Positions 6,331 to 64,000 of a DNA stretch of 64,000 nucleotides are shown here, piece after piece. The DNA comes from Chiloscyllium plagiosum. Taxonomy: Eukaryota. Made by a program: the position numbers and the translations under genes. Position 1 is the first letter of the stretch. The number at the start of each line of letters is the position of its first letter. The stretch lies in the NCBI RefSeq assembly GCF_004010195.1, contig NC_057752.1, positions 10,489,830 through 10,553,829 of the forward strand. The letters run 5' to 3'. The notes under the pieces are model-generated. The model did no database searches. It was not told the DNA's origin and was given only the letters and a program-made list of their open reading frames with translations.

Positions 6331-6343
6331 ACTGGATAGCTGC

Positions 6344-7010: not shown

Positions 7011-7083
7011 TATGTAGAACACATCATTGTTTTAAATTGTTTGAAATGTTGTGGTTCTGTTCGCCGAGCTGGAAATTTTTGTT

Positions 7084-7123
7084 GCAAACGTTTCGTCCCC
7101 TGTCTAGGTGACATCCTCAGTGC
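7084..7123 (-). ncRNA. Minimal type-I hammerhead ribozyme motif (PLE)
   Basis: Reverse complement of the motif at 7671-7710. Confidence 0.75.
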
Positions 7124-7670: not shown

Positions 7671-7710
7671 GCACTGAGGATGTCACCTAGACAGGGGACG
7701 AAACGTTTGC
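7671..7710 (+). ncRNA. Minimal type-I hammerhead ribozyme motif (PLE)
   Basis: gca-CTGAGGA-t-GTCaCCT agac AGGgGAC-GAAA-CG-TT-tgc: catalytic core, stem II and 3-bp stem I. Confidence 0.75.
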
Positions 7711-7793
7711 AACAAAAATTTCCAGCTTGGCGAACAGAACCACAACAACGAGCACCCGAGCTACAAATCTTCTCACAAACTTTGTTTGAAATG

Positions 7794-15499: not shown

Positions 15500-17760
15500 T
15501 TTTTAAATGGAAAGTCAAAAAATAGTGGAACACCCCTTGCTGGGACACTGTATCAAAACACAAAGTAACAGTTGAATGGAACCTTGCAGAAAGAAACAGA
15601 AACTCACTCAGTTTTGGGGTGAGGATGCACCCCAGCTCCTGTGGTGCCCATTAATTTTGAAAGGCCTTGACCATGCTGATGAGCACCATGTGCTCCCTGT
15701 CCAAGGACTCCCGAGTGCGGATGTAACCATGAAAGTGGGGCAAATAGTCAGGATCAATGAGCCCCTGCATAGCCCGCTGGCTGGACCTATTGACGGCCAT
15801 CTTGGCCAAGTCCAGGTCTAGAGTCATGTGAAGGCCCATAGACTTGTCCGCCTTTCCCACACCAAGTGCCTGTAGATCAGGAGTGTGGGGCTGAAATGCA
15901 ACCAAAATTCGAGGGGCAGCCCTTTCCCAAAAACTTAAAAGAGATTACAAATGGAAACATTCTATGTATGTAGAAAAAACATTTCCTCCAGGCCACAAAA
16001 ACGACACATGGCCTGGCACCCAGTGAACTTACTGAACCTATGATTGCATGGGACCACCCTGTGGTCTCCCTGTGGTGTCCACCCAGATTCCCACTGGGAA
16101 TCTCCACCAGCAGAGGGCAAAACAGCATGCCATGGCATATCTGAGCAGTGGGTGAAGGTGGAAAGTTTGTCGCAACAGCCTGCACAGGAAACGCTTCTGT
16201 GCCTTTACAAAGGGCATGGGGAGGATTTCCCCGAGAAAGTTCAGTTTGTGGGACATTGTGTCACAGGAGTCAGTTTGTCCAGAAGCCCACCGCATGCAAT
16301 GGCGACCTCAATTTGACATGAGGCGTCAGGGCCAAGTGTCAGAGCTGTGCCAGCGCCCACAGCCCACTTCTCCGCCGTCCAGCATCCTGAGTCCTCAGCC
16401 CTCAGAGCAGCCAACAGAGACTGTGCTGACAGACGAACCTATTCCTGAGCAGTGGCTCCCTTAGGCGCGCATTCATTCCTGTCACGGGAGAGCTCTAGTG
16501 TGAGCTGACCGTGTCCCAGACTGTGATCAGGTCCAAGTAAAAGACGAGCGATTCCTGGAGGAAGCGCCAAGGATTGGGCAAGTCCGTGAACGGGAAGTGC
16601 TTGTCGTATCGGAGACTGCACACCTGATGGAAGATATACGCTACCAGGATGTGCCCTTGCACCCCCCTTGGAGGAGGCTCGATATAATGGTATCACTGCA
16701 GGGTCTGAAAGCAGAAAGTCTCTCTCTGGGTGTGAAGGCACACCAGTGCCTGACCACCCTCCTCAAGCCAGAGTTTCAGCAGTGACCCAGGGCTGCCTTT
16801 TGTCCCAGAAAACCCAACAAGTTTTTACTGGATACTCATGATAAATCCTGGGGGAGGAACCAAAGTGACCAGCCAGTATCACAACATGGCATCTGCCAGC
16901 TGATTCATGCCCAACACTTGGAGTAGTCCTGTCCAGTGCGCTAGGTGAGTGGTCACCTTGATTTCCAACTCATGCTAATCAGCTGGCCAGGGTTCCTCAG
17001 TCAGCTGAAGATGGACTCCCAGGTAGAGGAGGCCAGTGGTACTCCACAGGAGCACTAGAGCTCCTTAGGCAAGGGGTCCTCATGGGGGAGGCCACAGAGG
17101 CAGCAGCACGGTGGTTCAGGGGTTAGCACTACTGCCTCACATTGCCAGGACCTGAGTTCGATTCCACTGTGGGTGACTGCCTGGATGGAGTTGGCAAACT
17201 CTCCCCGTGTCTCTGTGGGTTTCCTCCCACAGTCCAAAGATGTGCAGGTCAGGTACATTAGCCGTGCTAAAGTGCCCATATTATCCAGGGAATGTGCAAG
17301 CTAGGTGGATTAGCTATGGGAAGTGCAGGGTTACAGGGATAGGTGGGTCTGGGTGGGATACTCTTCGCAGGATCATTTTGGACTTGATAGGCTGAATGGC
17401 CTGCTTCCACATTGTAGGGATTCGACGATTGAATTGACCTCCTGACATGCAGGCAACCTCTGCAAGGCAGCTGGGTCTGTGAACATGAGGGGCATGTTGT
17501 CAGCATATGCCGAAAGGACCACGTCCAGCCCCAGCCCACACAAAGCCAAACCTGACAGCTGCTTACACAAGAGGCGCAGGAACAGCTCCACACAAAGAGA
17601 ATACAGCTGGCTGGACAGGATCAGCCCTGAAACATTCCCCTCCCAAAACATAGGGACACTGTCAGGAACCTGTTAACCTTCACTAGACAGAAGTGGATTC
17701 TGGGCGACAAAGTGTGTTTGAACCTGATAGTGCACAAAACCCCGAGCTGGTACTCAATTT
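15500..17760 (-). mobile_element. Tx1/L1-clade LINE, ORF2 3' half, degenerate
   Basis: RT motif VVLSAYADNM (YADD-like) at ~17500; C-terminus LAKMAVNRSSQRAMQG...FHGYIRTRESLDREH homologous to 63746-63961. Confidence 0.85.
17098..17428 (+). mobile_element. HE1-type tRNA-derived V-SINE inserted in the Tx1 element
   Basis: GCACGGTGGTTCAGGGGTTAGCACTACTGCCTCAC head; V-domain GTTTCCTCCCACAGTCCAAAGATGTGCAGGT. Confidence 0.9.
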
Positions 17761-25429: not shown

Positions 25430-25612
25430 AAAAATAAACTTTAAATGCTGAAGATCTGAAACAGCATGGAAATTGGGGGAGAAACTGAGCAGCTCTGGCA
25501 GCATCTGAACTGAAGAAGGGTTACTGGACTCAAAAACACTAATTTTGCTTTCCCTTCCAAGGGAAGGGAAGGATGTTGCTAGACCTACTGAGTTTCTCCA
25601 GCAATTTCTGTC
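25430..25612. mobile_element. Degenerate palindromic PLE terminal repeat
   Basis: GAGAAACTGAGCAGCTCTGGCAGCATC inverted with GATGTTGCTAGACCTACTGAGTTTCTCC. Confidence 0.65.
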
Positions 25613-27349
25613 CAAGTAATGATCAGCTGTTCTCAAGGCCAGTGCAGGATAATGGGGAAAGGGATACAGCAGAAAGAAACTGCATGCAACAACAATAATG
25701 AACAGGAGCAATAGCAGTGCTCTGGATTAACAATGGGTAGGTACAGTGTCAACAGTGCACAGTAACAACCAGCAGGTACAGCGTCAAAACTCCACTGCGA
25801 GAATGGGCAGGAACAATGCCATTGCAACACAGTAACAATGAGAAGAAACAGTGACAACACTGCACAGTAACAGTGGGCAGGAACAATGTTAGCAGCCCAC
25901 AGCAAAAATAGGCAGGAACAGTGGAAACGCTCCTCAGTACTGTGCCGCAGGAACTATATCCACACAGCACAGTGATAATGGGAAAGAACAGTTCCAAGAC
26001 TCCTCAGTAATAATGGCAGCACGAATGCCAGTGTTCCACAGTAACAGCAGGCACCAAGTGTTTCAATACTCCACTGTAACAATGGTCAGGAACAGTGTGA
26101 TCGCTCCTCAGTAACAATTAGCAGGGACAGTGCCCATCTGCCACACTAATAATGGGAGGGCACAGTGACAACACTCCACAGAAACAACGTAATGCAGTGC
26201 CAGTGCCTCCGAGTAACAACAGGCAGAAACAATGTGAGTGCTCCTCAATAACAGTCAGCTAAACAATGCCTGTCCTCCACAGCAATATTGGGAGGAACAA
26301 TGCCTGCATGCAACTGTAACAACAGGCAGGAACAGTGCCAGTGCTCCAGAGTGACAATGGGCACTAACAAGGCCAGCACTCCACAATAACAATCGGCAGG
26401 GCCAGTGCCAACAGTAGACCATACAATTGGCAGGAACAGTGCCACAACTCCACAGGAAGCATAGGCAGGAACAATGCCAGTGTTTCACAGCACCATTGGC
26501 ATGAACAATGACAACATTCTATGGTAACACCAGACTGGACGAATTGCCAGTGCAACACAGTAGCAATGAGCAAGAACATTACCAGTGCCAAACAGTGCCA
26601 ACAGGCAGAAACACTGCCAGTGGTCCAAAATGAGACTGGGCAAGGACAGTGTCAAACTTCCACAGTGAAAATGGGTAGGAAATGTGCTAATGCTCCACAA
26701 TAAAAATTGAAAGGTACAGTGACTATACTCCACAATAGTAATGGGGTAGATACAGTGCCAACACTCCACAGTAACACTGAACAGGAACAGTGCCAACATT
26801 GCACAGTAATAATTAACAGCAACTGTGCCCACGTGACACAATGATAATGGGAAAGAACAGAACCCAAGACAATTCACAACAATGGCAGCAAGAATGCCAA
26901 TGTTTCACAGTAACAATGGGCACCATCAGTGCAAATGCTCCAGAGTAACAATGGGCAGAAACAGTGCGACCAGTCCTCAGTAACAGTGAGCAGGGGCAGT
27001 GCCTATCTGCCACAGTGATTATGGGAAAGTACAGTGTCAACACTCCTCAGTGAAAATTGGCAGGACCAGCTAACAGTCCACAGTAAAAAAAATGGGAAGG
27101 AACAGTGCCAACAATCCACAGAAACAGCAGAAAGGAAAAGGGCCAGTGCCCCAGAGTAATGACAGGCAAAAAACAGTGTGAACGTTCCTCAGTAACCATC
27201 ATCTGAACAGCGCCAAAGCTCCACACAATGGGAGGGTCCCAACTGTAACAATGGGCAGGAACGATGCCAGTGCTCCACAATAACAATCAGGAGGGACAAA
27301 ACTCAACAGTAAGCATGAGAATGAACACGTGTAAAAGCTTCACAGTAAA

Positions 27350-29551
27350 AACCGCTCCATTCCCCCAGCCACACTTCAGAAAGTTAGATCATGGCGCTGT
27401 GTTCCTCCTCCCACCTTACAAGCAGAAGCTGAAAGGGGAGGAAGCTTCACACAAAGATGGATGGTCCGAAGCAGTGGAAGACTGTCTTTGGGACTGCTTG
27501 GAATCTGTGGACTGGACCATGTTCAAGTAGTCAGCGGAAAACCTAGACGAGTATGACACTACCGTCACAGATTTCATTAGTAAATGAGGTCTGTGTACCA
27601 AAGAGGTCAATCCGGGTGTTCCCCAATCAGAAACCTTGGATAAACCGGGAAATCCACACCTTACTGAAGACCAGACACGCAGCATTCAAAGTTGGACGAC
27701 CCAGACCTATACAGAAAATCCTGAGGTGACCTCCACAAAGCCATCAGGGATGCCAAGAGGCAGTACTGGACCGAGTTAGAGGCCCAAACCAACCAAACAG
27801 AAACCCATTGCCTGTGGCAAGGCCTAACTAACATAACAGGATACAAAATGAATCAGAGCAAGATAGAGGGCAAAGACACATCCCTCCCTAATGCGCTCAA
27901 CACTTTCTGTGCCTGGTTCGAGCAGAATGCCAGTGGCATGGTGTCACCTGCCCCGACAGCCTCGGACATACCTGTGCCCACACTCACTGCTGTTGACGTC
28001 AGTTTGGTCATCCTAGGAGTCAACCAAGGGAAAGTGACTGGCCTGGACACAGTCTCCGGCTGTGCACTTAGATCCTCTGCAGACCAACTGGCAGAGGTAG
28101 TCACTGACATCTTCAACCTCTCCCTCTGCAAGCCGAAGTCCCCACCTGCTTCAAGAAGGCCACCATCATCCCAGTACCTAAGAAAGCACATGCAACGTGC
28201 CTTAATGACTACTGTCCAGTGGCTCTAACCACCAAAAATCATGAAGTGCTTCGAGAGGCTGGTCATGGCCCACATCAGTTCTAGTCTTCCCAGCCTGCCT
28301 CCATCCCCTATAATTTGCCTACTGACGTAACAGGTCCTCAGCAAACACCATTATCCTTGCCTTATACTCATCCCTGGAACACCTGGACAAGAAGGACACC
28401 TACATCAGACTCCTGTTCATTGACTACAGCTCCGTCTTCAACACCATGATCCCCTTGAGACTGACCTTAAAACTCAGGCCTAGGTTTCAGTTCCACCCTC
28501 TGTAACTGGATCCTCAGCTTCCTGACCCACAGACCGCAATTCAGTGAGGATAGACAACAGCATCTCCTCCATGATAATACTCAATACTGGAGCCCCCCCA
28601 CCAAGAATGTGTTCTCAGCCCCCTACTGTACTCCCTCTACACCCACAACTGTGTTGCCAATTTCAGAATGAACGCCATCTCCAAGTTTGCTGATAACACC
28701 ACCGTGGTAGGCTGGATATTAAACAACAATGAGTCAGAATACAGGAAGGAGATAGAGGGCTTGGTGACCTGGTGCAATGATAACAATCTCTTTCTCAATG
28801 TCGGCCGAACTAAAGAACTGCTCACTGACGTCAGAAAGAGAGGAGGAGGACATGCCCTTATCGACATCAACGAAGCTGAGATTGAGAGGGTGGACAGTGT
28901 CAAGTTCCTTGGAGTGATGATAAACGAAAACCTGTCCCGGACTTCCCACGTAGATGTGATGGTCCAGAAGATACAACAATGCCTCTTCTTCCTTAGGTGG
29001 CTCAGGAAATTCGGCATGTCCACAAGGTCCCTCACCAACCTTTACAGATGTACAACTGAAAACATACTGTCCCGGTGCATAATGACCTGGTATGGTAACT
29101 GCTCTGCCCAGGACTGGAAGAAACTACAGAAGGTTGGGTGCACAGCCCAGACCATCACGGAGGCCAACCTTCCATCCATGGACTCCATATACACGGCTTG
29201 GAGCCACGGAAAGGCTGCCAACATCATCAAGCATCCATCGCACTCTGGTAATGCTCTCCTCCAACCTCTTCCATCAGGCAGAAAATACAGAAGCTTGAAC
29301 ACACGGACCAGCAGCTTCAGGAACAGCTTCTTCCCTGCTGTTGTTAGACTGATGAATGAACTCTCTAGCTTCAAATAATGCTGATCTTGTTCATGTGGAT
29401 CTTGCCTAGCGCTGCCCTGTGCAGTGTAACCTGTATGCCACTGTACATCCTTGCTCACTATGAACCACCTGTACTGCTCGTAAACAAAGCTTTTCATTGT
29501 ACGTGGGTACATGTCACAATAAATCAATCAAATCAAATCAAATCAAATCAA
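27350..29551 (+). mobile_element. Rex1/Babar LINE, 5'-truncated and frameshifted
   Basis: [60 protein letters not shown]; ends in (ATCAA)n at 29521-29551. Confidence 0.92.
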
Positions 29552-30437
29552 TACTGGCACAAAAAATGGTATTGCCTAACTATAACAGCAGACAAGATCA
29601 GTCTGAGTGCTCCACAGAAACAATGGGCCTGAATAATTCTTTATTGACAATGGTCAGAAACATTGTGAACATCCCACATATTTTTGGCAAGTACTGTGCC
29701 AACTTTCCCCGCTAATAATGTGGGGGAATCCTTCGATCACTCCGCAGAAACACTGGGCAGGAACAGTGCAAGTGCCTCACAGTAACAACGGGAGGAATAG
29801 TGCCAACACTCCGCAGTAACACTGGGCAAGTGAAGTTCCAGCAACACAGGGCCAGAACTGAGTAGAAATTCTGCAGTGACAATGCGCAGGAACATTGCAA
29901 ACATCCAATGTAACAGTGGGCAGCAACAGTGCCAACACTGCACTGGAGGAGGAAAAGTGACACTGCTCTGCAGTATAGGCCAGAACAGTATCACAATTCC
30001 ACAGTGATACTGGGCTGGAACGGTGCCAATGGTGCTTGGTAATAAGGTGAAGAAGTACTGCAAGCACTCTGCAGAAACAATGGGCAGGAAAAATGCCAAC
30101 ACTGCACAGTAACACTGAGGAGCAAAAGTGACAAAATCCCACAGTAACAATGGGCAGATGGAATCTCAAAGTTCCACAGTAAAAATGGGCAGGAGTAGTG
30201 CCAACACTTCACGGCAATACTGGGCATGAACAGTGCCAAGGCGCCACAGTAACATGTTGCAGGTTAAGTGCTAGCGCTCTGCAGAAACAATGGGCAGCAA
30301 CATTGTCAAGGTCCCACAGTAATAATGAAGAGGAAGCCAGTGAGGACTCTACAGGAACAAGGCCACAGTAATACAGGGAGGAAATTTGATCCACAGTAAC
30401 AATGGGCCAGAACAGCATCAACATTTGAATGGCAATA

Positions 30438-32437
30438 AGAGACATAAAATATAGGAGCAGGAGTAGACCATTTGGCCCTTTGAGCTTGCTCCTCCATTCA
30501 ATATGATCATCCAACTCAATCCGCTGTTCTTGCTTCCTCCCCACACCATTTGGTCCCTTTAGCCCTAACGTATAATGACCCTCTGACTCTAAATAGACCT
30601 ACTTCCTTCTTGAAAACATTCAGTGTTTTGGCCTCAATCACTTTCTTGGCAAAGACATTCCACAGGTGTACCACTGAAGAAATTTATTCTCATCTCTGTC
30701 CTAAAAGCCTGAACTCTTATCCTAAGACTGCCAGCCCTGGTTCTGGACTCTCAGGGAATCGAGAAAGTCCTTCCTGCATTTACTTTGTCCACTCCTGTTA
30801 GAATTTTATAGGTTTCTATGAGATTCTTCGAAACTCAAGTGAATCTAGTCTTAACTGATCCAGTCTCTCTTCATATGTCAGCCTCGCCATCCCAGGAATC
30901 AGTCTGGTAGACTTTCTTTACACTTCCTCAATAACCCAAACATCTTTCCTCTGGTAATGAGACCAAAACTGCATACAATACTTCAGGTGTGGTCTTACCA
31001 GTGCCCCGTACAACTGCAGGAAGACATCCCTGCTCCTGTACTATGATGGCTAACATACCATCTGCCTTTCTCGCCTGCTGCACCTGCAGGCTTACTTTCA
31101 GTGACTGATGTACAAGGACACCAACATCTCATTGAACCTCCATATTTCCCAATCTATCACCTTTCAGATAACAATCTGCCTGCTTTGCCTTTGCTACAAA
31201 AGTGGACAACCTCAAATTTATCCACACTGTACTGTATCTGCCATGTATTTGCCCTCTTCCTTAACTTGCCCAAATCATACTGAAGCTTCTCTGCATCATC
31301 CTCTCAGTTCATCCTCTCACCCATCTTTGTGACATCTGCAGACCTGGAGATATTATATTTAGTTCCTTCATCGAAATCATTAACAAATATTGTGACTAAC
31401 TGGGGCCCAAGCATTGATTCCTGCGGTACCCCACTTTATCTGCCACTCAGATAAAAACCTGTGAGTTCTGAGGAAGGGTTATTCAACCCAAAACATTAAC
31501 TATGATTTTTCTTCACAGGTGCTGCCAGACCTACTGAGCTTTTCCAGCGAATTCTATTTTTCTTTCTGATTTACAACATCCTCAGTTCTCTGGGTTTTTA
31601 CCTGTTTATTATTACTGTGTGTTTCCTGTCTGCCAGCCAGTTCTGTATCCATGTCAGTACATGACCTCCGACCCCATGTGCTTTAATTTCACATGCTAAT
31701 CTTTTATATAAGACATTATATGAAAACTTTCTGAAAATCCAAGTAAACCATATCCACTGACTTCCCTTTATCCACTCTCCTAATTACATCCTGAAAATAT
31801 TCCAGCAGATTTGTCAAGCTCAACTTCCCCATCGTACATCGATACTGAGTCTGTCCTATCTTATCATTATCTTCCAAGTGCTCCACTACTAAATCTTTTA
31901 TAATGGACTCCAGCATTTTCCCCACTATCGATGTCATGCCAACCAGTCTAAAATTTGCTTTTTTTTTCTCTCTCTGCCTACCTTCTGAAATACATTGTTT
32001 GACTTCCAATCCATAGCAACTGTTCCTGAGTCTACAGAATTTTGAAGGTGACCAATCGTGCAACTGCTATTTCTAGGGCCACTTCTTCAGGTACTCTGGG
32101 AAGTAAATTATCAGGCCCTAGGCATTTATCTGCTTTTAATCCCATTAACTTCCTCAACACAATTTCTCCACTGATATCTCTCAAATCTTCCTTCCTAATA
32201 GGTCCTGTATCCTCCCATATTTTTGGGATGGTATTGTGCCGTCCTTTGTGGAGACAGAACAAAACTATGTACTTAACTGGTCTGCCATCTCTTTGTTCTC
32301 CATTATAAAATGTCCCTGTTCCGGACTGGAAGGGAATATTTGTCTTTACTACAATTTTGTATGTTCCCTGGAAGCTGCCTCTCATACCCTATTTTCCCCT
32401 GCTTAATCAGTAACTTTGTCTCCCTTCCCTGGAACCT
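30438..32437 (-). mobile_element. CR1 LINE, degenerate, with small PLE insert at ~31465-31600
   Basis: LKADKCLGPDNLLPRV, NFRLVGMTSIVGKMLESIIKD, VDMVYLDFQK. Confidence 0.9.
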
Positions 32438-33702
32438 AAACATTGCCAACACATCACGGAAAACTGCACGGGAACTGTGCCAAACTCCCGTAGTAACAAT
32501 GGGCCAGAGCTGTATCACAATTCTGCAGTGATAATCGGAAGCAACATTGCCAACGTCCCACATAACAGTGGACAGGAACAGTGCCAAAATGGCAAATTAA
32601 TTTGTGAAAGAATCCTGCCGGTACTCCACAGCAACACTGGGCAGGAACAGTGTCAACAACACACAATAACACTGGGCAGGAACAGAATCATTACTCCACA
32701 GAACACAGGGCAGGAACAGTACTAACATTGCACAGGAACACTGGGCAGGAACAATGTCAACACTCCACAGTAAGACTGGGCACGAACAGACTCATTACTC
32801 CACAGTAACACTGGGCAGGAACAGCATTAACACCACACAGAGTAACACTGGGTAGGAACAGTATCAACACTCCACAGTAACACTGTGCATGGACAGTGTC
32901 AACACTCCACAGTAACACTGGGCATGGACAGTGTCAACACTCCACAGTAACACTAGGCAGGAACAGAATCATTATTCCACAGAACACAGGGCAGGAACAG
33001 TACTAACATCGCAGAGGAACACGGGGCAGGAACAAAGGCAACACTCCACAGTAAGACTGGGCACGAACAGACTCATTACTCCACAGTAACACTAGGCAGG
33101 AACAGTATTAACACCACACAGAGTAACACTGGGCAGGAACAGTATCAACACTCCACAGTAACACTGGGCATGGACAGTGTCAACACTCCACAGTAACACT
33201 GGGCATGGACAGTGTCAACACTCCACAGTAACACTGGGCAGGAACAGTGTCAACAGGCCACAGTAACACTGCGCAGGAACAGTATCAACACCACACAGTA
33301 ACACTGGGGAGGAACAGTGCAACACCCCACAGTAACACTGTCCAGGAACAGTATCAGCACCACACAGTAACACTGGGGAGGAACAGTGAAACACCCCACA
33401 GTAACACTGTGCAGGAACAGTATCACCACCACACAGTAACACTGGCAGGAACAGTATTTACTCTCCACAGTAACACTGGGCATGGACAGTATCAACACTC
33501 CACAGTAACACAGGGCAGGATCATTGCATCACTCCACAGTAACACTGGGCAGGAACAGTATGAACACTCCACAGTAAGACTGGGTTGGAACAGTACAAAC
33601 ACCACACAGGAACACTGGGAAGGAACAGTGTTAACACTCCACAGTAACACTGGGCAGGAACAGTATCAACACTCCACACTAACACTGGGCAGGAACAGTA
33701 TC

Positions 33703-34584
33703 NNNNNNNNNNNNNNNNNNNNNNNNNNNNNNNNNNNNNNNNNNNNNNNNNNNNNNNNNNNNNNNNNNNNNNNNNNNNNNNNNNNNNNNNNNNNNNNNNN
33801 NNNNNNNNNNNNNNNNNNNNNNNNNNNNNNNNNNNNNNNNNNNNNNNNNNNNNNNNNNNNNNNNNNNNNNNNNNNNNNNNNNNNNNNNNNNNNNNNNNNN
33901 NNNNNNNNNNNNNNNNNNNNNNNNNNNNNNNNNNNNNNNNNNNNNNNNNNNNNNNNNNNNNNNNNNNNNNNNNNNNNNNNNNNNNNNNNNNNNNNNNNNN
34001 NNNNNNNNNNNNNNNNNNNNNNNNNNNNNNNNNNNNNNNNNNNNNNNNNNNNNNNNNNNNNNNNNNNNNNNNNNNNNNNNNNNNNNNNNNNNNNNNNNNN
34101 NNNNNNNNNNNNNNNNNNNNNNNNNNNNNNNNNNNNNNNNNNNNNNNNNNNNNNNNNNNNNNNNNNNNNNNNNNNNNNNNNNNNNNNNNNNNNNNNNNNN
34201 NNNNNNNNNNNNNNNNNNNNNNNNNNNNNNNNNNNNNNNNNNNNNNNNNNNNNNNNNNNNNNNNNNNNNNNNNNNNNNNNNNNNNNNNNNNNNNNNNNNN
34301 NNNNNNNNNNNNNNNNNNNNNNNNNNNNNNNNNNNNNNNNNNNNNNNNNNNNNNNNNNNNNNNNNNNNNNNNNNNNNNNNNNNNNNNNNNNNNNNNNNNN
34401 NNNNNNNNNNNNNNNNNNNNNNNNNNNNNNNNNNNNNNNNNNNNNNNNNNNNNNNNNNNNNNNNNNNNNNNNNNNNNNNNNNNNNNNNNNNNNNNNNNNN
34501 NNNNNNNNNNNNNNNNNNNNNNNNNNNNNNNNNNNNNNNNNNNNNNNNNNNNNNNNNNNNNNNNNNNNNNNNNNNNNNNNNNNN
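33703..34584. other. Assembly gap inside the satellite
   Basis: Run of N. Confidence 1.
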
Positions 34585-37099
34585 GCAGGAACAGTATCAA
34601 CACTCCACAGTAACACTGGGCATGGACAGTATCAACACTCCACACTAACACTGGGCAGGAACAGTATCAATACCACACAGTAACACTGTGCAGGAACAGT
34701 ATTACTGGGCAGGAACAGTATTACCACCACACAGAGTAACACTGGGCAGGAACAGTATCAACACTCCACAGTAACACTGGGCATGGACAGTGTCAACACT
34801 CCACAGTAACACTGGGCATGGACAGTGTCAACACTCCACAGTAACACTGGACATGGACAGTGTCAACAGGCCACAGTAACACTGCGCAGGAACAGTATCA
34901 ACACTCCACAGTAACACTGGGCATGGACAGTGTCAACACTCCACAGTAACACTGGGCAGGAACAGTGTCAATAGGCCACAGTAACATGGCGCAGGAACAG
35001 TATCAACACTCCACAGTAACACTGGGCATGGACAGTGTCAAAACTCAACAGTAACACTGGGCAGGAACAGTGTCAACAGGCCACAGTAACACTGGGCAGG
35101 AACAGTATCAACACTACACAATAACATTGGGCAGGAACAGTATCAACACGCCACAGTAACACTGGGCATGGACAGTGTCAACACTCCACAGTAACACTGG
35201 GCATGGACAGTGTCAACACTCCTCAGTAACACTGGGCAGGAACAGTGTCAACAGGCCACAGTAACACTGCGCAGGAACAGTATCAACACCACACAGTAAC
35301 ACTGGGGAGGAACAGTGCAACACCCCACAGTAACACTGGGCGAGAACAGTATCAACACCACACAGTAACACTGGGCAGGAACAGTATCAACACTCCACAG
35401 TAACACTGGGCAGGAACAGTATTAACACTCCACAGTAACACTGGGCAGGAACAGTGTCAACAGTCCACAGTAACACTGCGCAGGAACAGTGTCAACACTC
35501 CACAATAACACTGCGCAGGAACAGTGCAACACTCCACAGTAACACTGGGCATGGACAGTATCAACATTCCACAGTAACACTGGGCAGGAACAGTATCAAT
35601 ACCACACAGTAACACTGGTCAGGAACAATGTTAACATTCCACAGTAACACTGGGCATGGACAGTATCAACACTCCACAGTAACACTGGGCAGGAACAGTG
35701 TCAACACTCCACAGTAACACTGGGCAGGGACAGTGTCAACACTCCACAGTAACACTGTACAGTAACAGTGTCAACAATTCACAGTAACACTGTGCAGGAA
35801 CAGTGTCAACAATACACAGTAACACTGGGCAGGAACAGTGTCAACACTCCACAGTAACACTGGGCAGGAATAGTACCAACACTCCACAGTAACACTGGGC
35901 ATCGATAGTGTCAACACTCCACAGCAACAGTGGGCATGGACAGTGTCAACACTCCACACTAACACTGGGCAGCAACAGTGTCAACATTCCACAGTAACAC
36001 TGGGCAGGAACAGTATCAACACTCCACAGTAACACTGGGCATGGACAGTGTCAACACTCCACACTAACACTGGGCAGCAACGGTGTCAACATTCCACAGT
36101 AACACTGGGCAGGAACAGTATCAACACTCCACAGAAACACTGGGCAGGAACAGTGTTAACACTCCACAGTAACACTGGGCAGGAACAATGTCAACACTGC
36201 ACAGAAAGACTGGGTAGGAACAGTACCAACTCCACACAGTAACACTGGGAAGGAACAGTGTCAAAACTCAACAGTAACACTGGGCATGGACAGTGTTAAC
36301 ATTCCACAGTAATACTGCGCAGGAACAGTATCAACACCACACAGTAACATTAGGCAGGAACAGTATCAACACTCCACAGTACCACTGGGCAGGAACAATG
36401 TCAACACTCCACAGCAACATTGCGCAGGAACAGTGTCAACACTGCACAGTAACACTGGGTAGGAACAGTACCAACACCATACAGTAACACTGGGAAGGAA
36501 CAGTCTCAACAGTCCACAGTAACACTGCGCAGGAACAGTATCAACACCACACAGTAACACTGGGCAGGAACAGTGTCAACACTCCACAGTAACACTGGGC
36601 AGGAACAGTATTATGACTCCATACTAACACTGTGCAGGAACAGTGTCAACACTCCACAGTAAGACTGCGCAGGAACATTGCAACACTCCACAGTAACACT
36701 GGGCAGAATAAGTATTAACACTACACAGTAACACTGGGCATGGACAGTATCAACACTCCACACTAACACTGGGCAGGAACAGTATCAACACTCCACAGTA
36801 ACACTGGGCATGGACAGTGTCAACACTCCACAGTAACACTGGGCAGAAACAGTATCAACACTCCACAGTAACACTGGGCATGGACAGTGTCAACACTCCA
36901 CAGTAACACTGGGCAGGAACAGTGTCAACAGGCCACAGTAACACTGCGCAGGAACAGTATTAACACTACACAGTAACACTGGGCATGGACAGTATCAACA
37001 CTCCACACTAACACTGGGCAGAAACAGTATCAATACCACACAGTAACACTGTGCAGGAACAGTATTACTGGGCAGGAACAGTTTTAACACCACACAGAG

Positions 37100-40974: not shown

Positions 40975-41168
40975 TTTTTTTGTCTTTTTTTTTCGACTCC
41001 TGTTTGTTTTTCCTTTACCCCCACACTACCGCCTAATTGCGGTAGTGCTTATATTTTCCCTAGCACCCATGTTAAGTGTGTAGGTGTGAGACACAGTGAA
41101 AGACACAAGGTGTACAAATCTTTATTCAATTTCCACCACCAGGAAGAAAGGAAACACCCGAGTGGCCA
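40975..41168 (-). mobile_element. 5'-truncated Tx1-type 3' end with TSD
   Basis: Matches units at 50097-50340; TSD ACAATGTTGAT at 40964-40974 and 41169-41179; poly(T) on the plus strand. Confidence 0.85.
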
Positions 41169-47237: not shown

Positions 47238-47530
47238 GGTAAAAACAATGACTGCAGATGCTGGAAACCAGGGTCTAGGTTAGAGTGGTGCTGGAAAAGC
47301 ACAGCAGTTCAGGCAGGATCCGAGGAGCAGTAAAATCGACGTTTCGGGCAAAAGCCCTTCATCAGGAATACAGGCAGAGAGCCTAAAGGGTGGAGAGATA
47401 AGTGACCCTCCTCTCCACGCTTCAGGCTCTCTGCCTGTATTCCCGATGAAGGGCTTTTGCCCGAAATGTCGATTTTCCTGCTCCTCGGATGCTGCCTGAA
47501 CTGCTGTGCTTTTCCAGCAACACACTCTCA
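47238..47530. mobile_element. Inverted PLE terminal-repeat pair (~120-bp arms) inserted in a CR1-group LINE fragment
   Basis: 47285-47400 is inverted relative to 47410-47525; intact minus-strand hammerhead at 47338-47365, mutated plus copy at 47443-47470. Confidence 0.88.
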
Positions 47531-49182: not shown

Positions 49183-49707
49183 GATTTTGCTGCTCGTCGG
49201 ATGCTGCCTGAATTGCTGTGCTCTTCCAGCACCACTGATCCAGAATCTGGTTTCCAGCATCTGCAGTCATTGTTTTTGCCTCATAAAAAATACTGTGGCT
49301 ATAAGAGCAGTTCAGAGGCTAGGAATACTCCATCAAGCAACTCAGGACCCACCCCGTCCACCCATTCCCCAGGTACAGTACCTGCAGAATTCACTTTACA
49401 TTCCATTGTTGCTTCATGCTAAAATGACCATTTATATCCATTTAAGTTTTACTGTTTGTTGAATCAGTATTCAATATTTGTTGGATGTTATGTTGTACTG
49501 TGTGTTTGCTGCACTAGGGGGCAGTATCTGCCATCAGTCTGTGATTGTGGAAGTAAAGAAATTAATCTTTCAGCTATGTTCTGTTTATTTTAGCTTCTTA
49601 ACTCAGATTTTCCTATTTATGTTGACTTTACACAATTTAGGTCAATATGAATTGATTTGATATTAAGTCTTCATAATTCATTGATCTGGAATGATCTAGA
49701 ACCATGT

Positions 49708-50780
49708 TGATGCGATTGTAATGAGGTCAGCTAGGTGAACCTCATAGAATGACATTGTTTTCTGATGAAGAGCTTATGCTCGAAACGTTGATTCTCCTGC
49801 TCCTCGGATGCTGCCTGACCGGCTGTGCTTTTCCAGCACCACACTCTTCATCCCTGTTTGGGGTTGTTAACCTGGTCCAATCAGGGACTGTTGGCTGACA
49901 GGTTTAAACAGGAGTGTCGTCCCTACCCTCCCCTTCACTGTTTTGATCACACAGCACTGCCCTTTGATGTGAAGGGCAGTGTTTGTCACTGGCCACCCGG
50001 GTGTTTTCCTATCTTCCTGGTGGTGGAATTTGAATAAAGATTTGTGCACTTTGTGCCTTACACTGTAAAAAAAAAGAAAAATTAAACAGGAGTGTCGTCC
50101 CTACCCTCCCCTTCACTGTTTTGATCACATAGCACTGCCCTTTGATGTGAAGGGCAGTGCTTGTTACTGGCCACTCGGGTGTTTTCCTATCTTCCTGGTG
50201 GTGGGAATTGAAAAAAGATTTGTGCACCTTGTGTCTCTCACTGTGTCTCACACCTGCACACACACACCATGGGTGCTGGGGAAAAAAATAAGCACTACCG
50301 CAGTTAGGCGGTAGTGTGGGGGTAAAGAAAAAGAAAAAAAACAGGTAAAAAAAAAAGAAGAGTAGGTGTGTCAAAGGCACTGCTTGTCACTGACCACTCG
50401 GGGGAAAAAAAAGAAAAAAAATTAAACAGGCGTGTCCCCTTCACTGTTTGATCACGCAGCATTGCCCTTTGATGTGAAGGGCAGTGCTTGTCACTGGCCA
50501 CTCGGGTGTTTCCTTTCTTCCTGGTGGTGGGAATTTGAATAAAGATTCATGCACTTTGTGTCTCACACCTACACACACACAACATGGGTGCTGGGAAAAA
50601 ATAAGCACTACCGCAGCTAGGCAGTAATGTGGGGGTGGAAAAAAAAATAAACATGAGTGTCAGAGGTTCTGTTCACTCTGATACCTGGCTCTAACGAAGC
50701 CGGACCAGTGTCAAGTACTATGCACATGTAAATAAAGAGTGACTTGGTGATGGGATACTGACTTCTATGGAGTTATTCCA
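49708..50780 (+). mobile_element. Gypsy solo LTR carrying a PLE insert and tandem Tx1 3' ends
   Basis: TG...CA termini, TSD CATGT (49703-49707, 50781-50785); homologous to LTR 56067-56300; CCAAT at 49877, TTTAAA at 49903, AATAAA at ~50731. Confidence 0.9.
49919..50647 (+). mobile_element. Tandem poly(A)-tailed Tx1 3'-UTR insertions (3-4 units)
   Basis: Units separated by TTAAACAGG(A/C)GTGTC; homologous to the 3' UTR following Tx1 ORF2 at 63590-63700. Confidence 0.85.
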
Positions 50781-51404
50781 CATGTTATCTTTATTTGAAT
50801 CCTTTGCCTAACCCTGAAAATGAGAGGTTGGAGGACAGGGCAGTTCCTGGTGTTGGGCCCTTCATGAAGCATTCTCTTGTGAATGTGCGCAATTTATAAA
50901 TCCAGGGAACAGCCGTTTCCTCATGAATGTGATCAGTCAGCTTGATCAACATGGTGAATGCCAATTAGTACCTGAACACCCTCCCTCACTTTTTGATGTT
51001 AGCATTTCCCTTAACAGACTTTGCTTGTAAATTTTGAATTGGCCACATGGGTGTTTTCTTGGTGGTGGAGAGAAAATATATAATAATGAACTCTATTTGC
51101 AACAGTATCTTCATTTTCTGTCTCGCTATTCTAAAAAAAAATAAGCAAATGGGTGATTTGGGGAAAATAAAAGGGGTAACAAGGAAGAAAGCAGACCCAT
51201 GGGCCCTCTTGTGGCATAGTGGTAGTGTCCCTACCCCAAGAAACGAATTAGCACCTCAGTTAAGATCTGTGCTCCTTATCCCAGGTGAGAAACAAATTGT
51301 CGCAGCTACTTGGTTCATATTCAAGGAAAGAACAAGGGGATGTCATTTGACAACACTGAAGCATTCAACATGTAAACCAGGAGAGTTTGAGGTGCGGAGT
51401 TTTC

Positions 51405-56066: not shown

Positions 56067-58029
56067 TGAAATAACTGCACAGAGGCTGGTATCCCGTCAC
56101 AAAATCATCCGTTATTTATTTGTTGAGAATCCTTGACACTGATCCAGTTCCCTCCTAGCCAGCTCTCAGAGTGAACAGGATGTTTGACACTCCTGTTCCT
56201 TTTTGTCAGCCAGGGCTCCCTAATTGGGGCTTTTAATCTGGTCCAATCAGGGAACTCATAATCTGAGGTCCACCTGGCTGACCTCGTTACAATCACTGCA
56301 TCCCTGGATCTAGGCTGTTTTTGTTTTGTAGCTCGTTTAGCACTGAGTCAGGTTCCTCCGACTCTGCCTCTGATACAGGCAGCGTGTATCGCATAGTAGC
56401 TTGCCTCTCGCACCCGGAATTCCTTGGAAGAAATTGATTCCCTTCAGGTTGCAAAGGTGGTAACATCCACTGAGTCCATCTCAGATTCCAAGGTATCTTC
56501 AACGCTTGACGGAGAGGGAGAACCTACGTGTTCCACAAAAGTTAGAAAGGCTATCAAAGAGCTGGGCATATTTTGTCCCACACCATTGCGAGTTTGCAGC
56601 TTTCATATGGTCCACGTTCACGACCATCTTACCTACCCAAGCCTTGTACATGACTGGACCTGACTTTGCGTCAACTGTGCCTCTTACCCACGCAGGGCCA
56701 TTCTCATGGTTCCTATACCAAACTTCATCCCCTGATGTAAACTGTCTCTCTCACATAGCAGAGTCTTGTGTCTGGAATTGGCGTTCTGCTTGCCGGTTCA
56801 CCCTCCCCTTCCCAGGTCCAGGAAAACCTGATTTAACCTGGTGTGGAGTCTTCTCCAACTCTGCTGGAGCTATCCCTGTAAATGCATGAGAGGTGGTCCT
56901 ATAATCAAATAGGAACGGGGACACTTTGGTATCTAGTGAAAATGTAGTCTGTTTCTTTAAGCCTGCTTTCAAAGTTTGGACTGTTCTTTCTGCCAGACTA
57001 TTGGATGATTGATGGTATGGAGCTGTCCTAGTCTGCCAAATAACATTCAACTTTAGGAAATACTCATATTCCTTGCTGGTAAACAATGGCCCATTATCTG
57101 TGGCTAACGCTTCTGGGAGTCCGTGTATTGCAAAAGACGTGTGCAGTTTTTCGTCAAACGCTGAGACAGTGATAGAATGAACTCTATGCATGTCCAGTCA
57201 CTTTGACTGGGTGTCCACAATGACTAAGAACATTGAGCCCATGAAAGGACCTGCATAATCAATGACCTGCATAACCATGAATGTGGGGGAGCTGCTGGTG
57301 GTAATTTTTGTCCTTGTTGGCACTCTGGGCACTTTCCCACCAATGTGGCTATGCCTGTACTCAATCCTGGCCACCAGACATAACTTCTCGCCAACATCTT
57401 CATTTTGGAAACTCCTGGATCACCCTGGTGGAGTGCAGGCAGTATCTGGCAGCAACCTTTGCTCAGGACAATCACCCTTGGTCCCCATAATAATATGACG
57501 TCCTCTACTGTGATCTGGTCTCTCTGGGTCCAAAAAGGTTTCAGTTCTGATTGTGACAAGCCTTTGGTATCCCCCATAATCCCCAGCTGTTTCAGTTTTG
57601 CCAGGACTGGATATTTCTGTGCCCAAAGTCTGATATTGTCAGCTGTGACTGGAAGTGTGTCCAGAAAATTTATAACAATTACGGACACTTCCAGTGGCAG
57701 TACCACTGGTGATGTATCTGCCAGTGAGAGGTATTGTCAGTTAGTGCAATTTTTCAGAGAACATTTTACAAGATTTACCCCAGGTCACCATTTATCTGAA
57801 TGATGCGCTAATAACATCAGTTATCCACTTTTGCTACTTGGCTTCCTGGATGGTGTTCCAACTTGCAATTACATGCCCTTATAGTTAGAGCCCATCACTG
57901 AATTCCATGTGAAGCTATGGGCAACATTGCCTTATCTTCTTTAAGCAGACCTTGCAGGGGTTTGTGGTCCCTTATTATTACAAATGTATATCCGTAAAAG
58001 ATATTGGTATAACCTCCTGACTCCAAATA

Positions 58030-58612
58030 GAACTTTAGTTAGGCCACACTTGGAATATTATGGACAGTTCTAGTCATCACACGACCAGAGGATGCGGATG
58101 CTTTGGAGAGGGTACAGAAAAAGTTTACCAGGATATTACCTGGTATGGGGGATTTTAGCTCTGAAGAAAAGTTGGCTAGACTGGGTTTGTGTTCACTGGA
58201 ACACAGGAGGTTGAGGGGCGACCTGATCGAAGTTTATAAGATTGTGAACGGCATGGATAGAGTGGGAAGTATGAGGCTTTTTCCCAGGGTGGAGGGATCA
58301 GTTACTAAGGGACACAGGTTCAAGGGATGAGGGGAGGGGTGGGGGTTTTTAAAAGAACTGTGTGAGGCAAGTTTTTCACACAAAGGCTGGCGATTGCCTG
58401 GAGCGTGTTGCCAGGGAAGATGGTGGAAGCAGACACAATAACAGCATTCAGGAAGCACCCGGACAAATACATGAATAGGAAGGGAATAGAGGGATATGGA
58501 TCCTGTAAATGAAGGCAGTTTTAGTATGGAAGGGCAACATGTGTCAGTGCAGGTTTGGAGGGCCAAAGGGCCTGTTCCTGTGCTGTATTATTCTTCATTT
58601 TCTTTGTTCTAT
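58030..58612 (+). mobile_element. CR1 3' end nested in the Gypsy RNase H region
   Basis: ERVQKKFTRILPG...LRGDLIEVYKI. Confidence 0.9.
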
Positions 58613-59289
58613 GACCGCCAAACCTTCCTTCTCTACCTGGGCATATTTACACTCTGCATTAGCTAAAGTCCTGGTTGCACATGCTATTGGGCTTTCCTTT
58701 CCATTGGGCCACCTATGAGCTAATATTACCCCGATGCCGTACAGGGAGGCATCACATGTTAATACCAGGTCTTGCTGGGGATCATGGTGTGCCAAGACCT
58801 TCGAGGATGTTTCTTCTCTTCCCTGTAGGCTATGACTTGGCTACATGACCATTTCCAAGTCTGACCTTTATTTTAAGAATTGATGCAAAGGATGGAGGCC
58901 AGGTTCTGTATGAACTTTCTGTAAGAATTCACCAGACCAAGAAAAAATCCTAGGCTCCAGTATAGACGTGGAAGCTAGGGCACCTTAGATTACCCTCACA
59001 TTATCTTCAAGTAAGTGTAACCCAATCTTTTTGGTTCTAGCCCAAGTAGATCACTTGGGGTGCCTGGAACACACATTAAGGCATACACCTGCCTGGGAGA
59101 AACATCTGTGAGAAAGTTCTCTAAGTGCTTCTTGTTGGTCTACCCTGTTATTAGCGCATCATTCAGATAAATGGTGACCTGGGGTAAATCTTGTAAAATG
59201 TTCTCTGAAAAATTGCACTAACTGACAATACCCCAAATGGCAGTTTGTATATTAGTACAAACCCTTATGGGTTTTAATTGTTGCACAGT

Positions 59290-59625
59290 AATTGGTGGTT
59301 AGCACTACTGCCTCACAGAACCAGGGACCTGGATTTGATTCCAGCCTCAGGCAGCTATCTGTGTGGAGTTTGCACATTCTCCCTGTGTCTGCGTGGGTTT
59401 CCTCCAGGTGCTCTGATTTCCTCCCACAGTCCAAGGATGTGTAAGTTAGGTGAATTGGCCATGCTAAATTGCCTATAATGCCAAGGGATATGCAGGTTAG
59501 GTAGATTAACCATAGGAAATACAGAGTTATAGAGTAAAGCGTTGTGAGTCTGGGTGGGATGCTTTTCAGAGGGTTGGTGTGGACTCAATGGGCTGAATAG
59601 CCTGCTTCCAAACTGTAGGGAGTCT
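59290..59625 (+). mobile_element. HE1-type SINE nested in the Gypsy element
   Basis: GTGGTTAGCACTACTGCCTCACAG head and V-domain. Confidence 0.9.
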
Positions 59626-61363
59626 TCTGTTCTGTAAGTAGTTCTATGAATCCACATCTAACTGCAATTGCAGATATGTGTGGCTTATGTTCAGCTTCAT
59701 GAAGGACAGTTCCCCCCACTGCCCCCCCCCCCCAACCCGCCAGTTTTGTGTGTCAGTCTTCTCCGCAATGGATTAGGTATCTATCCAGCTGTGAGAAAAG
59801 TGGTTTACTATTTGTTTAAAGTCCCCACAAAGGCGAATCAACCTGTTGGATTTCACAATCGATACAACTGATGCTGCCCTTTGCACAAACTGGACTGATT
59901 TGATGATTTCTCCGCTTTCCAACCTCCTGATTTCTGCCTCTACTTTTGCACTGGCTGGGTCTCACGGAATCGTGGAACTGCATCCTGGTCAAAATGCAAG
60001 GTTGGCACCTTTAATAGTCCCTAGACCTTCCCAAAAAAATTTGGATATTTAATTAGGACATCACTCAAACAGCCATTTTCTAATAGAAAAATGTTGAGCC
60101 AATGAAGGTGAATCTTTCTTAACCAATTTTGTCCCATCGAGCTTGAGCCCGAGCCTTTTACTACATTCAGTTGTAACTGAACCAGCTGCTTCTCATAAGG
60201 GACCAGAATGGAAGCTGAACCTTTAATCTGTAAAGGTTCCCTCATATAGGTTCTCAGTCTAGTGGAGGACGTGTACAAACTTAAGAATTGGAGTCCAGAG
60301 CAAATTTTGTTAAAGACTGGTTCTGTGATCATTGAAACAACCACGCTGGGTTAAAACTGGGTGACATTTACCCAGGCATTTATTTTAATTGGTTCTGATT
60401 TGGATGTTCCCTAGCAATTTAACTGTTCCAAAACAGATATAGATGAGCTTTCCAGGGTGTGCACTCTCCTAGATAACAGACTATGAGTTCTCTGACTCTA
60501 CTTAGGTCTAGTGGGATTCTTTTGCTTCCTCAAGTCCGCATACCCGCAGCAACTACAATGGCTTACTGGCTAGGAACCTGAAGAAAGTTTTAACGGTTTG
60601 GCCGAGGCTTGGCTTTCTTTTGGTGTTCTGCCATGGGCTGACCTAAAGTCCCTCTGTTCAGGATATGTCCTGAGTGAGGTTATGCATTTGTTTCCACTCT
60701 CAAGTGGTGTCCCCCAAGCTCAGTCAGACTGGTGAGGATGGTCCACTTCCATTGGAATACCCTGCAATTCAAATGCTCCACTTGCTACATTTTCCTATGA
60801 TAAAGCCAGTTGTAAGGCCTGTTTGAAGTCCAGCTGGGCTTCAGCTAGTAGGTGCTTTTGCACGGCTAAATCATTCATCCCACATACCAATTGGTCTCTT
60901 AGCATCTCATTAAGGGTTAAACCAAAGTCACGTGCCTCGTCTTAACCTTGTCAAAAATCCTGATATAGATTCCATTGGTTCTCAAATTGCTGAGTAAAAT
61001 CAATAGCATCTCAGAATAAGAGGAGGCTTGGGGTTGTAATATTCCTTAACTAAATCCATCAGCCCTTTAAAAGTTTTTGTATCTGGTGCCTTACGGGAAG
61101 TTAGGCTTCTAATAACTGAAAAATCTGTGGGTCCACACGCTGTCAGGAGAATTACCTGTTGCTTTTCATCTATCCCAACACATTCTTTTCACATACTGGG
61201 CCCAGTTTTTGATGACAGTATCGAATGAGTCAAGCTTCCCAAATAACTGCATGATGCCAGAAATGCTTACCCCAACTCAAAGACAATTGTTGAGAGTGAA
61301 TCCCTTCAGGAGCATGCTTTTCTCTCATCACCACGGAAATAACTCTTGTTAGACACTCCCTGT

Positions 61364-61668
61364 TCTTTATTTTTTCCTTTTTTTTATTAAACAGTACAAA
61401 ATACAGTTGTAGTTCACAGAAAAACACTATGTACAGGGGAAAGGCAGCAAAGCCAAACCCCAAACTCCACTGTTCAACCAGTTTTCAGGGAGATGAGGAC
61501 AAACCTCAAATCTCACTTCCATTCATCACAAAGGTAACAGTAACAAACACAGGCAAGATAGTGCAATCAAATGAAAAGCAGTGCATAGAACACAGACCCA
61601 ATATAGCCATAAAAAAAGACACCTGACACCAGTCCCTACCACATACTGACCAGACCGTCCTTGGCTAG
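61364..61668 (-). mobile_element. Poly(A)-tailed non-LTR 3' end inserted in the Gypsy 5' LTR
   Basis: Minus strand ends AATAAAAAAAAGGAAAAAATAAAGA; flanked by GACACTCC(C)TGT at 61352-61363 and 61669-61679. Confidence 0.75.
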
Positions 61669-61785
61669 GACACTCCTGTACTTATGTGTCAGCCAGGGCT
61701 CCATTATTGGACCAGATTAATGGCTCCAATCAGGAAACTCATATCCTGTGAGGTCCACCTGGCTGACTTCATTGCAATCATTACA

Positions 61786-63404: not shown

Positions 63405-63531
63405 TGAAATAACTGCACAGAGGCTGGTATCCCATCACCAGGTCACAGTTTATTTACATGTGCATAGTACATTGGCTGTGGCCAGCCAACTCGGAGTCAG
63501 TCCCCTGAACTGACAGGATTCGAAATTCCCT

Positions 63532-63540
<9 letters not shown>
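63405..63540 (-). mobile_element. Gypsy LTR 3' half (related subfamily)
   Basis: TGAAATAACTGCACAGAGGCTGGTATCCC matches the start of LTR 56067; ends at CCCTGTTTATA (TATA region). Confidence 0.82.
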
Positions 63541-63568
<28 letters not shown>

Positions 63569-63581
63569 TATTATATATATA
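63535..63581. repeat. (TA)n microsatellite
   Basis: Direct reading. Confidence 0.95.
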
Positions 63582-64000
63582 TTTTCTTTTTTACAATCCA
63601 CCACCAGAAAAGGCACCCGTGTGACCAATGAACTAGTGACAAGCAAAGCCCAGAGCGAGCAGTGCTTACGTGAAGAAGGAGAGGGTAGGGACTCAATCAA
63701 AATAGAATTGAAGGGGGAAATAAAACATTTCATGTTCTGTGGTGCTCATCTCTCCCTGAGAACCTTGAGGGTGTTGGTGCACACCGCGTGATCCTTCTGC
63801 AGAGACACCCGGGCTTGAACATTAACACGGAAGAGGGGCAGGCAGTCAGCCAGAATGACCCCCTCCACAACCTGCTGCGTGGACCTGTTAATGGTCAGCC
63901 TGGTCAGGCCCAGAGGCAGACCCGTGAGGAGATCCTCTGACCTGCCCTCTCCCCTCTGCACTGGGATTTATTTTTTTTCCCCATCTTTCCTACACTACCA
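63582..64000 (-). mobile_element. Tx1/L1 LINE 3' end (ORF2 C-terminus, 3' UTR, A-tail), with the tail of a second unit at the window edge
   Basis: LGLTRLTINRSTQQVVEGVILADCLPLFRVNVQARVSLQKDHAVCTNTL; second T-run plus CCTACACTACC at 63967-64000. Confidence 0.87.

Follow-up and report, generated by a model that had tools for sequence, protein, structure and literature searches.

Two related Tx1-type LINE families (A and B) and a noncoding family (C) of Chiloscyllium plagiosum insert repeatedly, in the sense orientation, at the TATA box of a Gypsy-type long terminal repeat (LTR); we think it probable that they use the LTR promoter and join their 5′ ends by pairing with the target.

A solo LTR with five insertions at its TATA box

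The window analyzed here, a stretch of 64 kb, contains a solo Gypsy-type LTR in which the motif TAAACAGGAGTGTC occurs at 49905, 50083, 50423, and 50648, the last two copies each with one mismatch (Table 1). With up to two mismatches allowed, the motif has five matches in the window, compared with 0.53 expected, and none of 100 shuffles gave five or more; the fifth match is the diverged site of an empty LTR (56186 to 56199). The preliminary description of this DNA had listed the four copies (as 49904, 50082, 50422, and 50648), which are indeed there, and a partial copy near 50363, which we found at 50362; it had missed another partial copy at 50339. The CCAAT box that it placed upstream of the motif and the A-tailed units that it saw between the target copies are also present. 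Because empty relatives of this LTR carry GATATAAACAGGAGTGTCAGA at the insertion place, the target word overlaps the TATA box.

Between the target copies lie four 3′ UTR pieces and one insert consisting only of an A run. The solo LTR has therefore received five insertions, and the target copies are their target-site duplications. Units 1 and 2 have a common 5′ start and different poly(A) sites, and unit 1 adjoins the promoter; the two units fit a scheme in which the cDNA anneals to like sequence behind the nick. Inserts made up of an A run alone, between copies of the duplication, were seen at loci L004 and L010 and, in the window, at 50339 to 50361. The units are copies of the 3′ UTR that lies behind the ORF2 stop codon of family A. 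They had been described as having sequence in common with the Tx1 element at 63590 to 63960; short words are shared, but the likeness ends there, because that element (63590 to 63965) belongs to family B, an older sister of family A.

Table 1. Features of the window, with positions counted from its first nucleotide
Feature	Position	Strand	Remarks
Solo Gypsy-type LTR, five insertions at TATA box	49708..50780	+	5-bp flanking duplication CATGT, 49703-49707 and 50781-50785
Dispersed repeat fragment, unrelated, within LTR upstream half	49759..49856	.	85-90% matches at 6343, 6435, 47282, 52139
CCAAT box of solo LTR	49877..49881	+	28 bases 5′ of motif
Left target copy; overlaps TATA-like box, LTR promoter still attached	49905..49918	+	
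Unit 1: family-A 3′ UTR +1 to +143, A tail	49919..50082	+	Ends 27 nt past AATAAA (50033)
Target copy 2	50083..50096	+	
Unit 2: entire family-A 3′ UTR (+1 to about +223), A tail	50097..50338	+	
Partial target copy, A-run-only insert, degenerate target copy	50339..50372	+	
Unit 3: short family-A 3′ UTR piece (+50 to +83), A tail	50369..50422	+	
Target copy with 1 mismatch	50423..50436	+	
Unit 4: family-A 3′ UTR, +11 through end, A tail	50435..50647	+	
Right target copy (1 mismatch, 50648) and LTR R/U5 half	50648..50780	+	AATAAA at 50731
Broken Gypsy-type element	56067..61785	-	5′ LTR 61335-61785, RNase H then integrase pieces, empty 3′ LTR 56067-56300; flanks GGCTT / GGCAT
RT_RNaseH_2	58598-58840	-	Gypsy-type element
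Integrase_H2C2	57224-57733	-	Gypsy-type element
rve, weak	56754-57197	-	Gypsy-type element
Family-C 3′ end with A tail, at TATA site of 5′ LTR 61335-61785	61362..61668	-	
Right half, LTR of second subtype (R2)	63405..63540	-	Left half about 500-600 bases beyond window end (locus L091)
Family-B Tx1: ORF2 C terminus, 3′ UTR, A/AT tail	63541..63965	-	
Family-A stub, non-LTR site, own 11-bp duplication	40983..41168	-	Tail bears LTR target word copy
Family D, separate old Tx1 family, used as control	15500-16400	-	Loci L251-L279

The other LTRs of the window are largely as first described. The 5′ LTR of the broken element and the LTR of the second subtype are interrupted at the equivalent site and the 3′ LTR of the broken element is empty, but the insert in the 5′ LTR belongs to the third, noncoding family C. 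This 5′ LTR additionally lacks most of its right half. The count of three filled LTRs in four holds in the window but not genome-wide, where occupancy is about 14 to 20%. The host has TG..CA LTRs and 5-bp flanks, and it is of Gypsy type, as had been proposed, because RNase H precedes integrase and the flanks are 5 bp long; its RT piece was recognized by eye alone. The same element contains an 87-nt perfect inverted repeat (57730 to 57816 and 59146 to 59232; spacing, 1,329 nt).

Elsewhere in the window are a 265-nt inverted repeat with 97% complementarity (7047 to 7311 and 7483 to 7747), near-adjacent inverted pairs at 6343 to 6526 and 47282 to 47526, and, from 25600 to 37000, several blocks of a long 35-bp tandem satellite, along with assembly gaps. 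In the family-A stub near 41010 to 41168 (minus strand), the LTR target word sits between two A runs of the tail. Such stubs, with the target word in the tail, could seed fresh target sites outside LTRs.

Identity of the inserts and their genome-wide target

Full-length family-A elements are about 7 kb long and run from a head through a repetitive 5′ region, ORF1, ORF2, and the 3′ UTR to an A tail. Pieces of the family-A ORF2 scored 28.9 bits for Exo_endo_phos (cutoff, 24.5) and 115 bits for RVT_1, with a weak zf-RVT below the cutoff, and the endonuclease region matches L1 endonuclease structures. A zf-CCHC match below the cutoff was obtained in one of three ORF1 pieces (E = 0.0014; 19.1 bits against a cutoff of 20.8) and none in three pieces of another run. 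The best named full-length relative of ORF2 is Tx1L (YTX2_XENLA), with 51% identity over the entire 948-aa query, 61% in the RT region, and 42% in the endonuclease region. An RT tree of 25 rows (midpoint root, no L1 outgroup, two short rows excluded) placed the element in a clade with proteins of Xenopus (Tx1L), turtle, and sturgeon and one further protein, with support of 100/99. Domains, the likeness to YTX2_XENLA, and the tree thus agree with the Tx1 assignment that had been claimed, and the copies carry the poly(A) tail and target-site duplication. Close ORF2 relatives (proteins P0009 and P0024) have many intact-length copies in sea turtles, in a cluster of 403, and a relative with 62% identity comes from a sturgeon record flagged as possible contamination.

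A single Tx1 family had been proposed, but at least three families (A, B, and C) use the LTR site. Family C, about 1.8 to 2 kb long, is noncoding (the longest stop-free frame in 1.8 kb at L235 is 105 aa) and A tailed, and it has the same LTR target as Tx1 families A and B. At L064 (700 to 1100), a family-C copy is joined behind Tx1 ORF2 sequence, and L126 ends partly in family-C-type 3′ sequence. The 3′ ends of family D lie mostly within a 70-bp satellite, which occurs at 14.3 to 15.5 kb of the window too. Family D is a second target-specific Tx1 family of this genome.

We assessed targeting at the loci of the best 30 matches to each family's 3′ part, with the window's own locus and overlapping duplicates removed. 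In the first round, an LTR half in the sense orientation was present at 14 of 26 best-match loci for family A, 20 of 28 for family B, 25 of 28 for family C (where downstream matches include R-derived heads), and 2 of 29 for family D. Refetching 11 of the 12 LTR-negative family-A loci at 10 kb gave one more positive, and seven of nine further family-A matches lay in LTRs, so that 22 of 35 best-match loci of this family are in an LTR, in sense. An antisense LTR was found at two loci only, both family B. The remaining 13 family-A loci comprise six or seven lone insertions with unrelated duplications, the rest being motif arrays in which no LTR was seen. LTR specificity is strong yet leaky, with lone family-A insertions elsewhere at about 1 in 5 loci. 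Compared with the control, these counts bear out the claimed genome-wide preference for the LTR site, with sense orientation and repeated insertion.

The 3′ flanks, which the preliminary description had named as a check, were enriched for the target word. It stood directly after the tail at 15 of 26 loci for family A, 16 of 28 for family C, 6 of 28 for family B (a strict word pattern applied to old copies), and none of 29 for family D, compared with 3 of 86 background A-runs. In their share of loci with an LTR flank, families A, B, and C all exceed 20%, a criterion for a target-specific family (PMC4494074). The word is not the element's own 3′ end, a candidate that we rejected because off-target copies have different duplications, although the word does occur in the tail of one copy.

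Four of 29 other LTRs, selected by their right half, were filled. A count of filled versus empty LTRs, also suggested at the outset, was made by exact words and gave 132 filled and 526 intact junctions (one array may count repeatedly), in agreement with the preference but not with an occupancy of three in four; all 30 intact junctions inspected by eye ran on as LTR. Pairwise identity was 94.5% for family A, 88% for family C, 85% for family B, and 76% for the LTRs, rough values from sets chosen differently. A primer-binding-like sequence was present behind 3 of the 41 right halves from filled LTRs and behind 5 of the 30 LTRs that were empty. Family A hit mostly old solo LTRs. The idea that insertion disables the host element is unsupported, because most filled LTRs are old and solo. 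Single host elements can be damaged, since the 5′ LTR of the one in the window is filled by family C.

Array growth and the 5′ ends of full-length copies

The short target duplications are about 10 to 16 bp long and begin within TATAAAC. Adjacent family-A units have a common 5′ start in 37 of 69 cases, compared with 3.2% of between-array pairs; 16 of the 37 same-start pairs end differently at the 3′ side, and 32 of the 69 neighbors differ in start. Same-start neighbors are 96.6% identical over the first 60 nt and 93.9% identical beyond (p = 1.5e-4 for the 23 pairs of sufficient length; 12 of 14 arrays), and unrelated family-A copies are about 94% identical along their whole length. At L091, the upstream unit, which lies mostly beyond the window, starts at exactly the base at which the resident family-B copy starts; its first 42 nt are identical to that copy and the rest is family A. 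The start of this chimera matches the resident B copy at 40 of 40 positions versus 28 to 31 of 38 to 39 for four A copies; further on, it is 92 to 97% identical to family A and, at 160 to 240 nt, 70 to 78% identical to family B. The head of a full-length copy at L365 begins at −180, as does the stub directly behind it. Because neighbors have common 5′ ends and the L091 chimera unites two families, 5′ joining appears to be guided by homology; the simplest reading of these sequences would be a pairing of the cDNA with DNA of matching sequence behind the nick, which would leave a long duplication.

For the 5′ ends of full-length copies, we examined 30 ORF1 loci, of which 17 had a readable head junction and 13 had none (gaps, truncation, contig ends, or no anchor). 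The 17 heads were R of the second LTR subtype in two cases, R of the first in three, a 3′ UTR piece in nine, and an ORF2-end piece in two; one copy began directly behind the LTR upstream half. Family-C heads, aligned to LTR R, are of the same R2 and composite R1+R2 types. The Tx1 and C families appear to swap parts. In many head copies, poly(A) follows after 40 to 100 nt. Such head-only inserts, made of the 5′ head and 40 to 100 nt of 5′ UTR followed by poly(A), were seen at the same target at L361, L370, L371, L373, L378, L379, and many of L380 to L409.

The word across the UTR-head junction occurred 34 times, and the head ended at +92 in 27 of 30 loci (BLAST; two pairs of these loci represent identical or duplicated places). 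The starts of these heads step down (+1, +11, +22 to +27, +33 to +45, and +60), which would fit a loss of 5′ bases in each round. At L364, the promoter is followed by a 15-bp duplication, a head starting at +22, and a full Tx1 with its tail; behind these come the second copy of the duplication and the right half of the LTR. Since no resident stub is there, this head came with the RNA.

The R-head word occurred 77 times, and in 25 of 30 loci examined it was preceded by the target word and the LTR stretch from the TATA box to the initiator. The predicted initiator is the A of TCACTCT, 29 nt past the TATA T, and this word of the LTR presumably fits the initiator consensus. In the five loci without matching target DNA, the head started at about −9, −3, +1, +2, and +15 from the predicted initiator, as judged by eye. 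The first 30 nt of composite heads were closer to the local LTR than to LTRs from elsewhere (n = 7; first 15-nt bin, p = 0.001; second, p = 0.016; noisy anchors), and R2 heads had no greater likeness to the local LTR R (n = 6; noisy anchors). We infer that the TATA-to-initiator stretch is probably derived from the target and the remaining head carried by the RNA, whose 5′ end would lie near the expected start of the LTR transcript. Because RNA-borne heads begin near this start, promoter capture, as the preliminary description had envisaged it, is indirectly supported by the heads of full-length copies, but R-heads were directly behind the promoter in only 1 of 30 loci (ORF1 lay within 1.5 kb in only 2). 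One lone full-length copy at an off-target site, L203, has a head reaching −190, longer than an initiator start easily explains, and two family-C heads (L220 and L124) contain LTR sequence upstream of the TATA box.

RNA reads came from one poly(A)-primed, 3′-biased single-cell run with the same species label. There were 209 LTR reads, mostly sense, and 16 of them ended in an A run just past the LTR AATAAA, which fixes the direction of the LTR. Reads on full-length Tx1 were concentrated on the 3′ UTR and A tail, a pattern that internal priming could also yield. A Tx1 or LTR start site was sought in this 3′-biased poly(A) run and none was seen; RNA run X3 gave zero reads.

Could the arrays have formed from a single insertion per LTR, multiplied by tandem duplication or unequal exchange, or could the units be a native LTR repeat? 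The common 5′ starts within arrays would suit such a history, as would the 97 to 98% likeness of some neighbors at the 3′ end, a higher-order repeat at L007, and the precedent of R1 tandems, described as having grown likewise (PMC5932611). At the 3′ end, too, same-start neighbors have a slight excess of identity (93.8% versus 91.9%; 18 pairs, p = 0.01), so plain duplication contributes some units. We nevertheless hold this explanation to be very improbable, since empty LTRs, which lack the units, reject a native repeat, and one local duplication as the main cause is rejected by arrays that mix A, B, C, head-only, and A-only inserts, by the neighbors that differ in start or in 3′ end, and by the L091 chimera. 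The preliminary description had itself named both histories as alternatives to its claim; both fail as the main cause, duplication being refuted in that role and a minor contributor.

An L1-like endonuclease of loose specificity, with a hot spot at the T/AAA junction of an accessible promoter reinforced by earlier A tails and duplicated targets, strikes us as unlikely. Lone off-target copies with unrelated duplications starting TAAAG or ATCAAC (L006, L008, L026, and the window copy at 41 kb) speak for it, as do junction shifts of a few bases, but the word after the tail is much longer than T/AAA and seldom follows background A-runs, the filled LTRs are mostly old solo copies, and family D in the same genome targets the 70-bp satellite. 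Slightly more credible, though still improbable, is real targeting by a Tx1 with an internal promoter, its heads being one-off template switches onto LTR or Tx1 RNA that aid 5′ joining alone. The U1/U2 heads of Tx1-Mar and SINEU are ascribed to template switching in the main text of one study (PMC4494074), the R-derived head has an initiator-like word that might work alone, full-length off-target copies occur (L203), and R-head copies are seldom directly behind the promoter. Against this, a head that reaches 34 or 77 sites requires a transcription start at or before the head, and the head type consisting of 3′ UTR sequence is an unlikely promoter. All readable head types, moreover, match sequence behind the TATA box of empty or filled LTRs, and R heads at unmatched sites end near the predicted initiator. 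We therefore prefer transcription from the LTR promoter with 5′ joining by target pairing.

A proposed mechanism and its relation to known systems

The proposed mechanism starts from the observed site, orientation, duplications of 10 to 16 bp, and stacking. The APE endonuclease of ORF2 would cut in or beside TATAAAC on the T-rich strand, and reverse transcription on the poly(A) tail would then be primed from this nick; poly(A)-tail priming at a specific nick is established for Tx1L. The left target copy is seen to keep CCAAT and TATA and each event to leave a new target, so that arrays grow. Where the cDNA matches the DNA behind the nick, whether LTR R or a resident stub, the 5′ part of the insert is a local copy in sequence, and such local copying would account for duplications whose lengths range from about 30 to at least 270 bp. 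Transcription of a copy lying behind the promoter would begin at the LTR initiator about 29 nt past the TATA box, and target-derived sequence would thereby become the 5′ head, which may guide the next 5′ joining and restore the initiator behind the TATA box. Heads would have been exchanged several times. Short polyadenylated transcripts of filled LTRs may be copied back too, from which the many stubs and head-only inserts would follow.

A bolder version, to which we give somewhat less than even credence, is that the Tx1 lineage described here lacks any promoter of its own, cuts Gypsy LTRs at the TATA box, and lives as an obligate promoter parasite. Its disposable, target-derived head would serve base-paired integration and TATA-initiator spacing, the lineage would have followed a change of LTR subtype by head swaps, and each filled LTR would be a small source of polyadenylated stubs returning to the identical site.

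The targeting itself is of a known kind; the novelty lies in heads taken from the target, in 5′ ends whose joining is guided by homology, and in the likely reliance on the LTR promoter. Crocodilian Tx1 families (Tx1-8_Crp and Tx1-4_AMi) prefer LTR retrotransposons, like A, B, and C here, and the main text of that study also describes inserts in tandem, snRNA heads that recur, and possible transcription out of the flank (Kojima 2015, PMC4494074). The same main text gives neither a position inside the LTR nor a link to the TATA box, and its Tx1-Mar and SINEU heads are U1/U2 snRNA, whereas those here are target derived (PMC4494074). Family C resembles a SINEU-type partner in being noncoding and A tailed and in having the target of Tx1 (25 of 28 best-match loci in the LTR site), but its head aligns to LTR R and is probably not derived from U1/U2 snRNA. 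Tx1L also inserts into another transposon by means of a sequence-specific endonuclease, which nicks its own site in Tx1D specifically (PMC1950540). Its target, however, is the DNA transposon Tx1D, and the accessible Tx1L sources contain no account that we found of target-derived heads or deep stacks. The alligator protein in the RT tree falls outside the clade of the family-A element.

R2 has a restriction-like endonuclease and an HDV-like ribozyme and resides in an rRNA gene of the host, whereas the elements described here have an APE domain and another transposon's Pol II-type promoter. Elements of the restriction-like endonuclease class are described in PMC4640811. R2 is cotranscribed with its 28S rDNA target from the target's promoter (Eickbush et al. 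2013, PMC3774820), and target sequence carried by the cDNA is proposed there as the primer for the second strand; in earwig R2, the 5′ end bears 22 bp of target from downstream, and repeated duplications are proposed to lengthen that end (PMC3774820). The likeness lies in target-derived sequence at the RNA 5′ end, which in our case is deduced from DNA copies; the difference is that pairing here would involve downstream DNA, earlier inserts included. HeT-A and TAHRE of Drosophila likewise form head-to-tail non-LTR arrays, and the HeT-A promoter lies upstream of the copy transcribed, but that promoter is the element's own 3′ UTR in a telomeric neighbor (PMC2615633), whereas here it belongs to another element. 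R1 forms tandems with target duplications between the units (PMC5932611). Within the literature covered by our search, outside which lay Repbase, Dfam, and most subscription journals, we found no description of a TATA-box target or of LTR-derived heads.

If the proposed mechanism is correct, what would be new is the reason for the site, namely, a LINE living off the Pol II promoter of another transposon, whereas R2 relies on transcription of the rDNA. The completion of LINE 5′ ends is described as poorly understood (PMC6895275). The arrays would constitute a large natural record of this step for APE-type LINEs, with the homology-guided long duplications and the two-family chimera as a direct trace, and an endonuclease that reads a word of 10 to 14 bases, together with homology-guided joining of full-length copies, may provide a testable model for targeted RNA-templated insertion.
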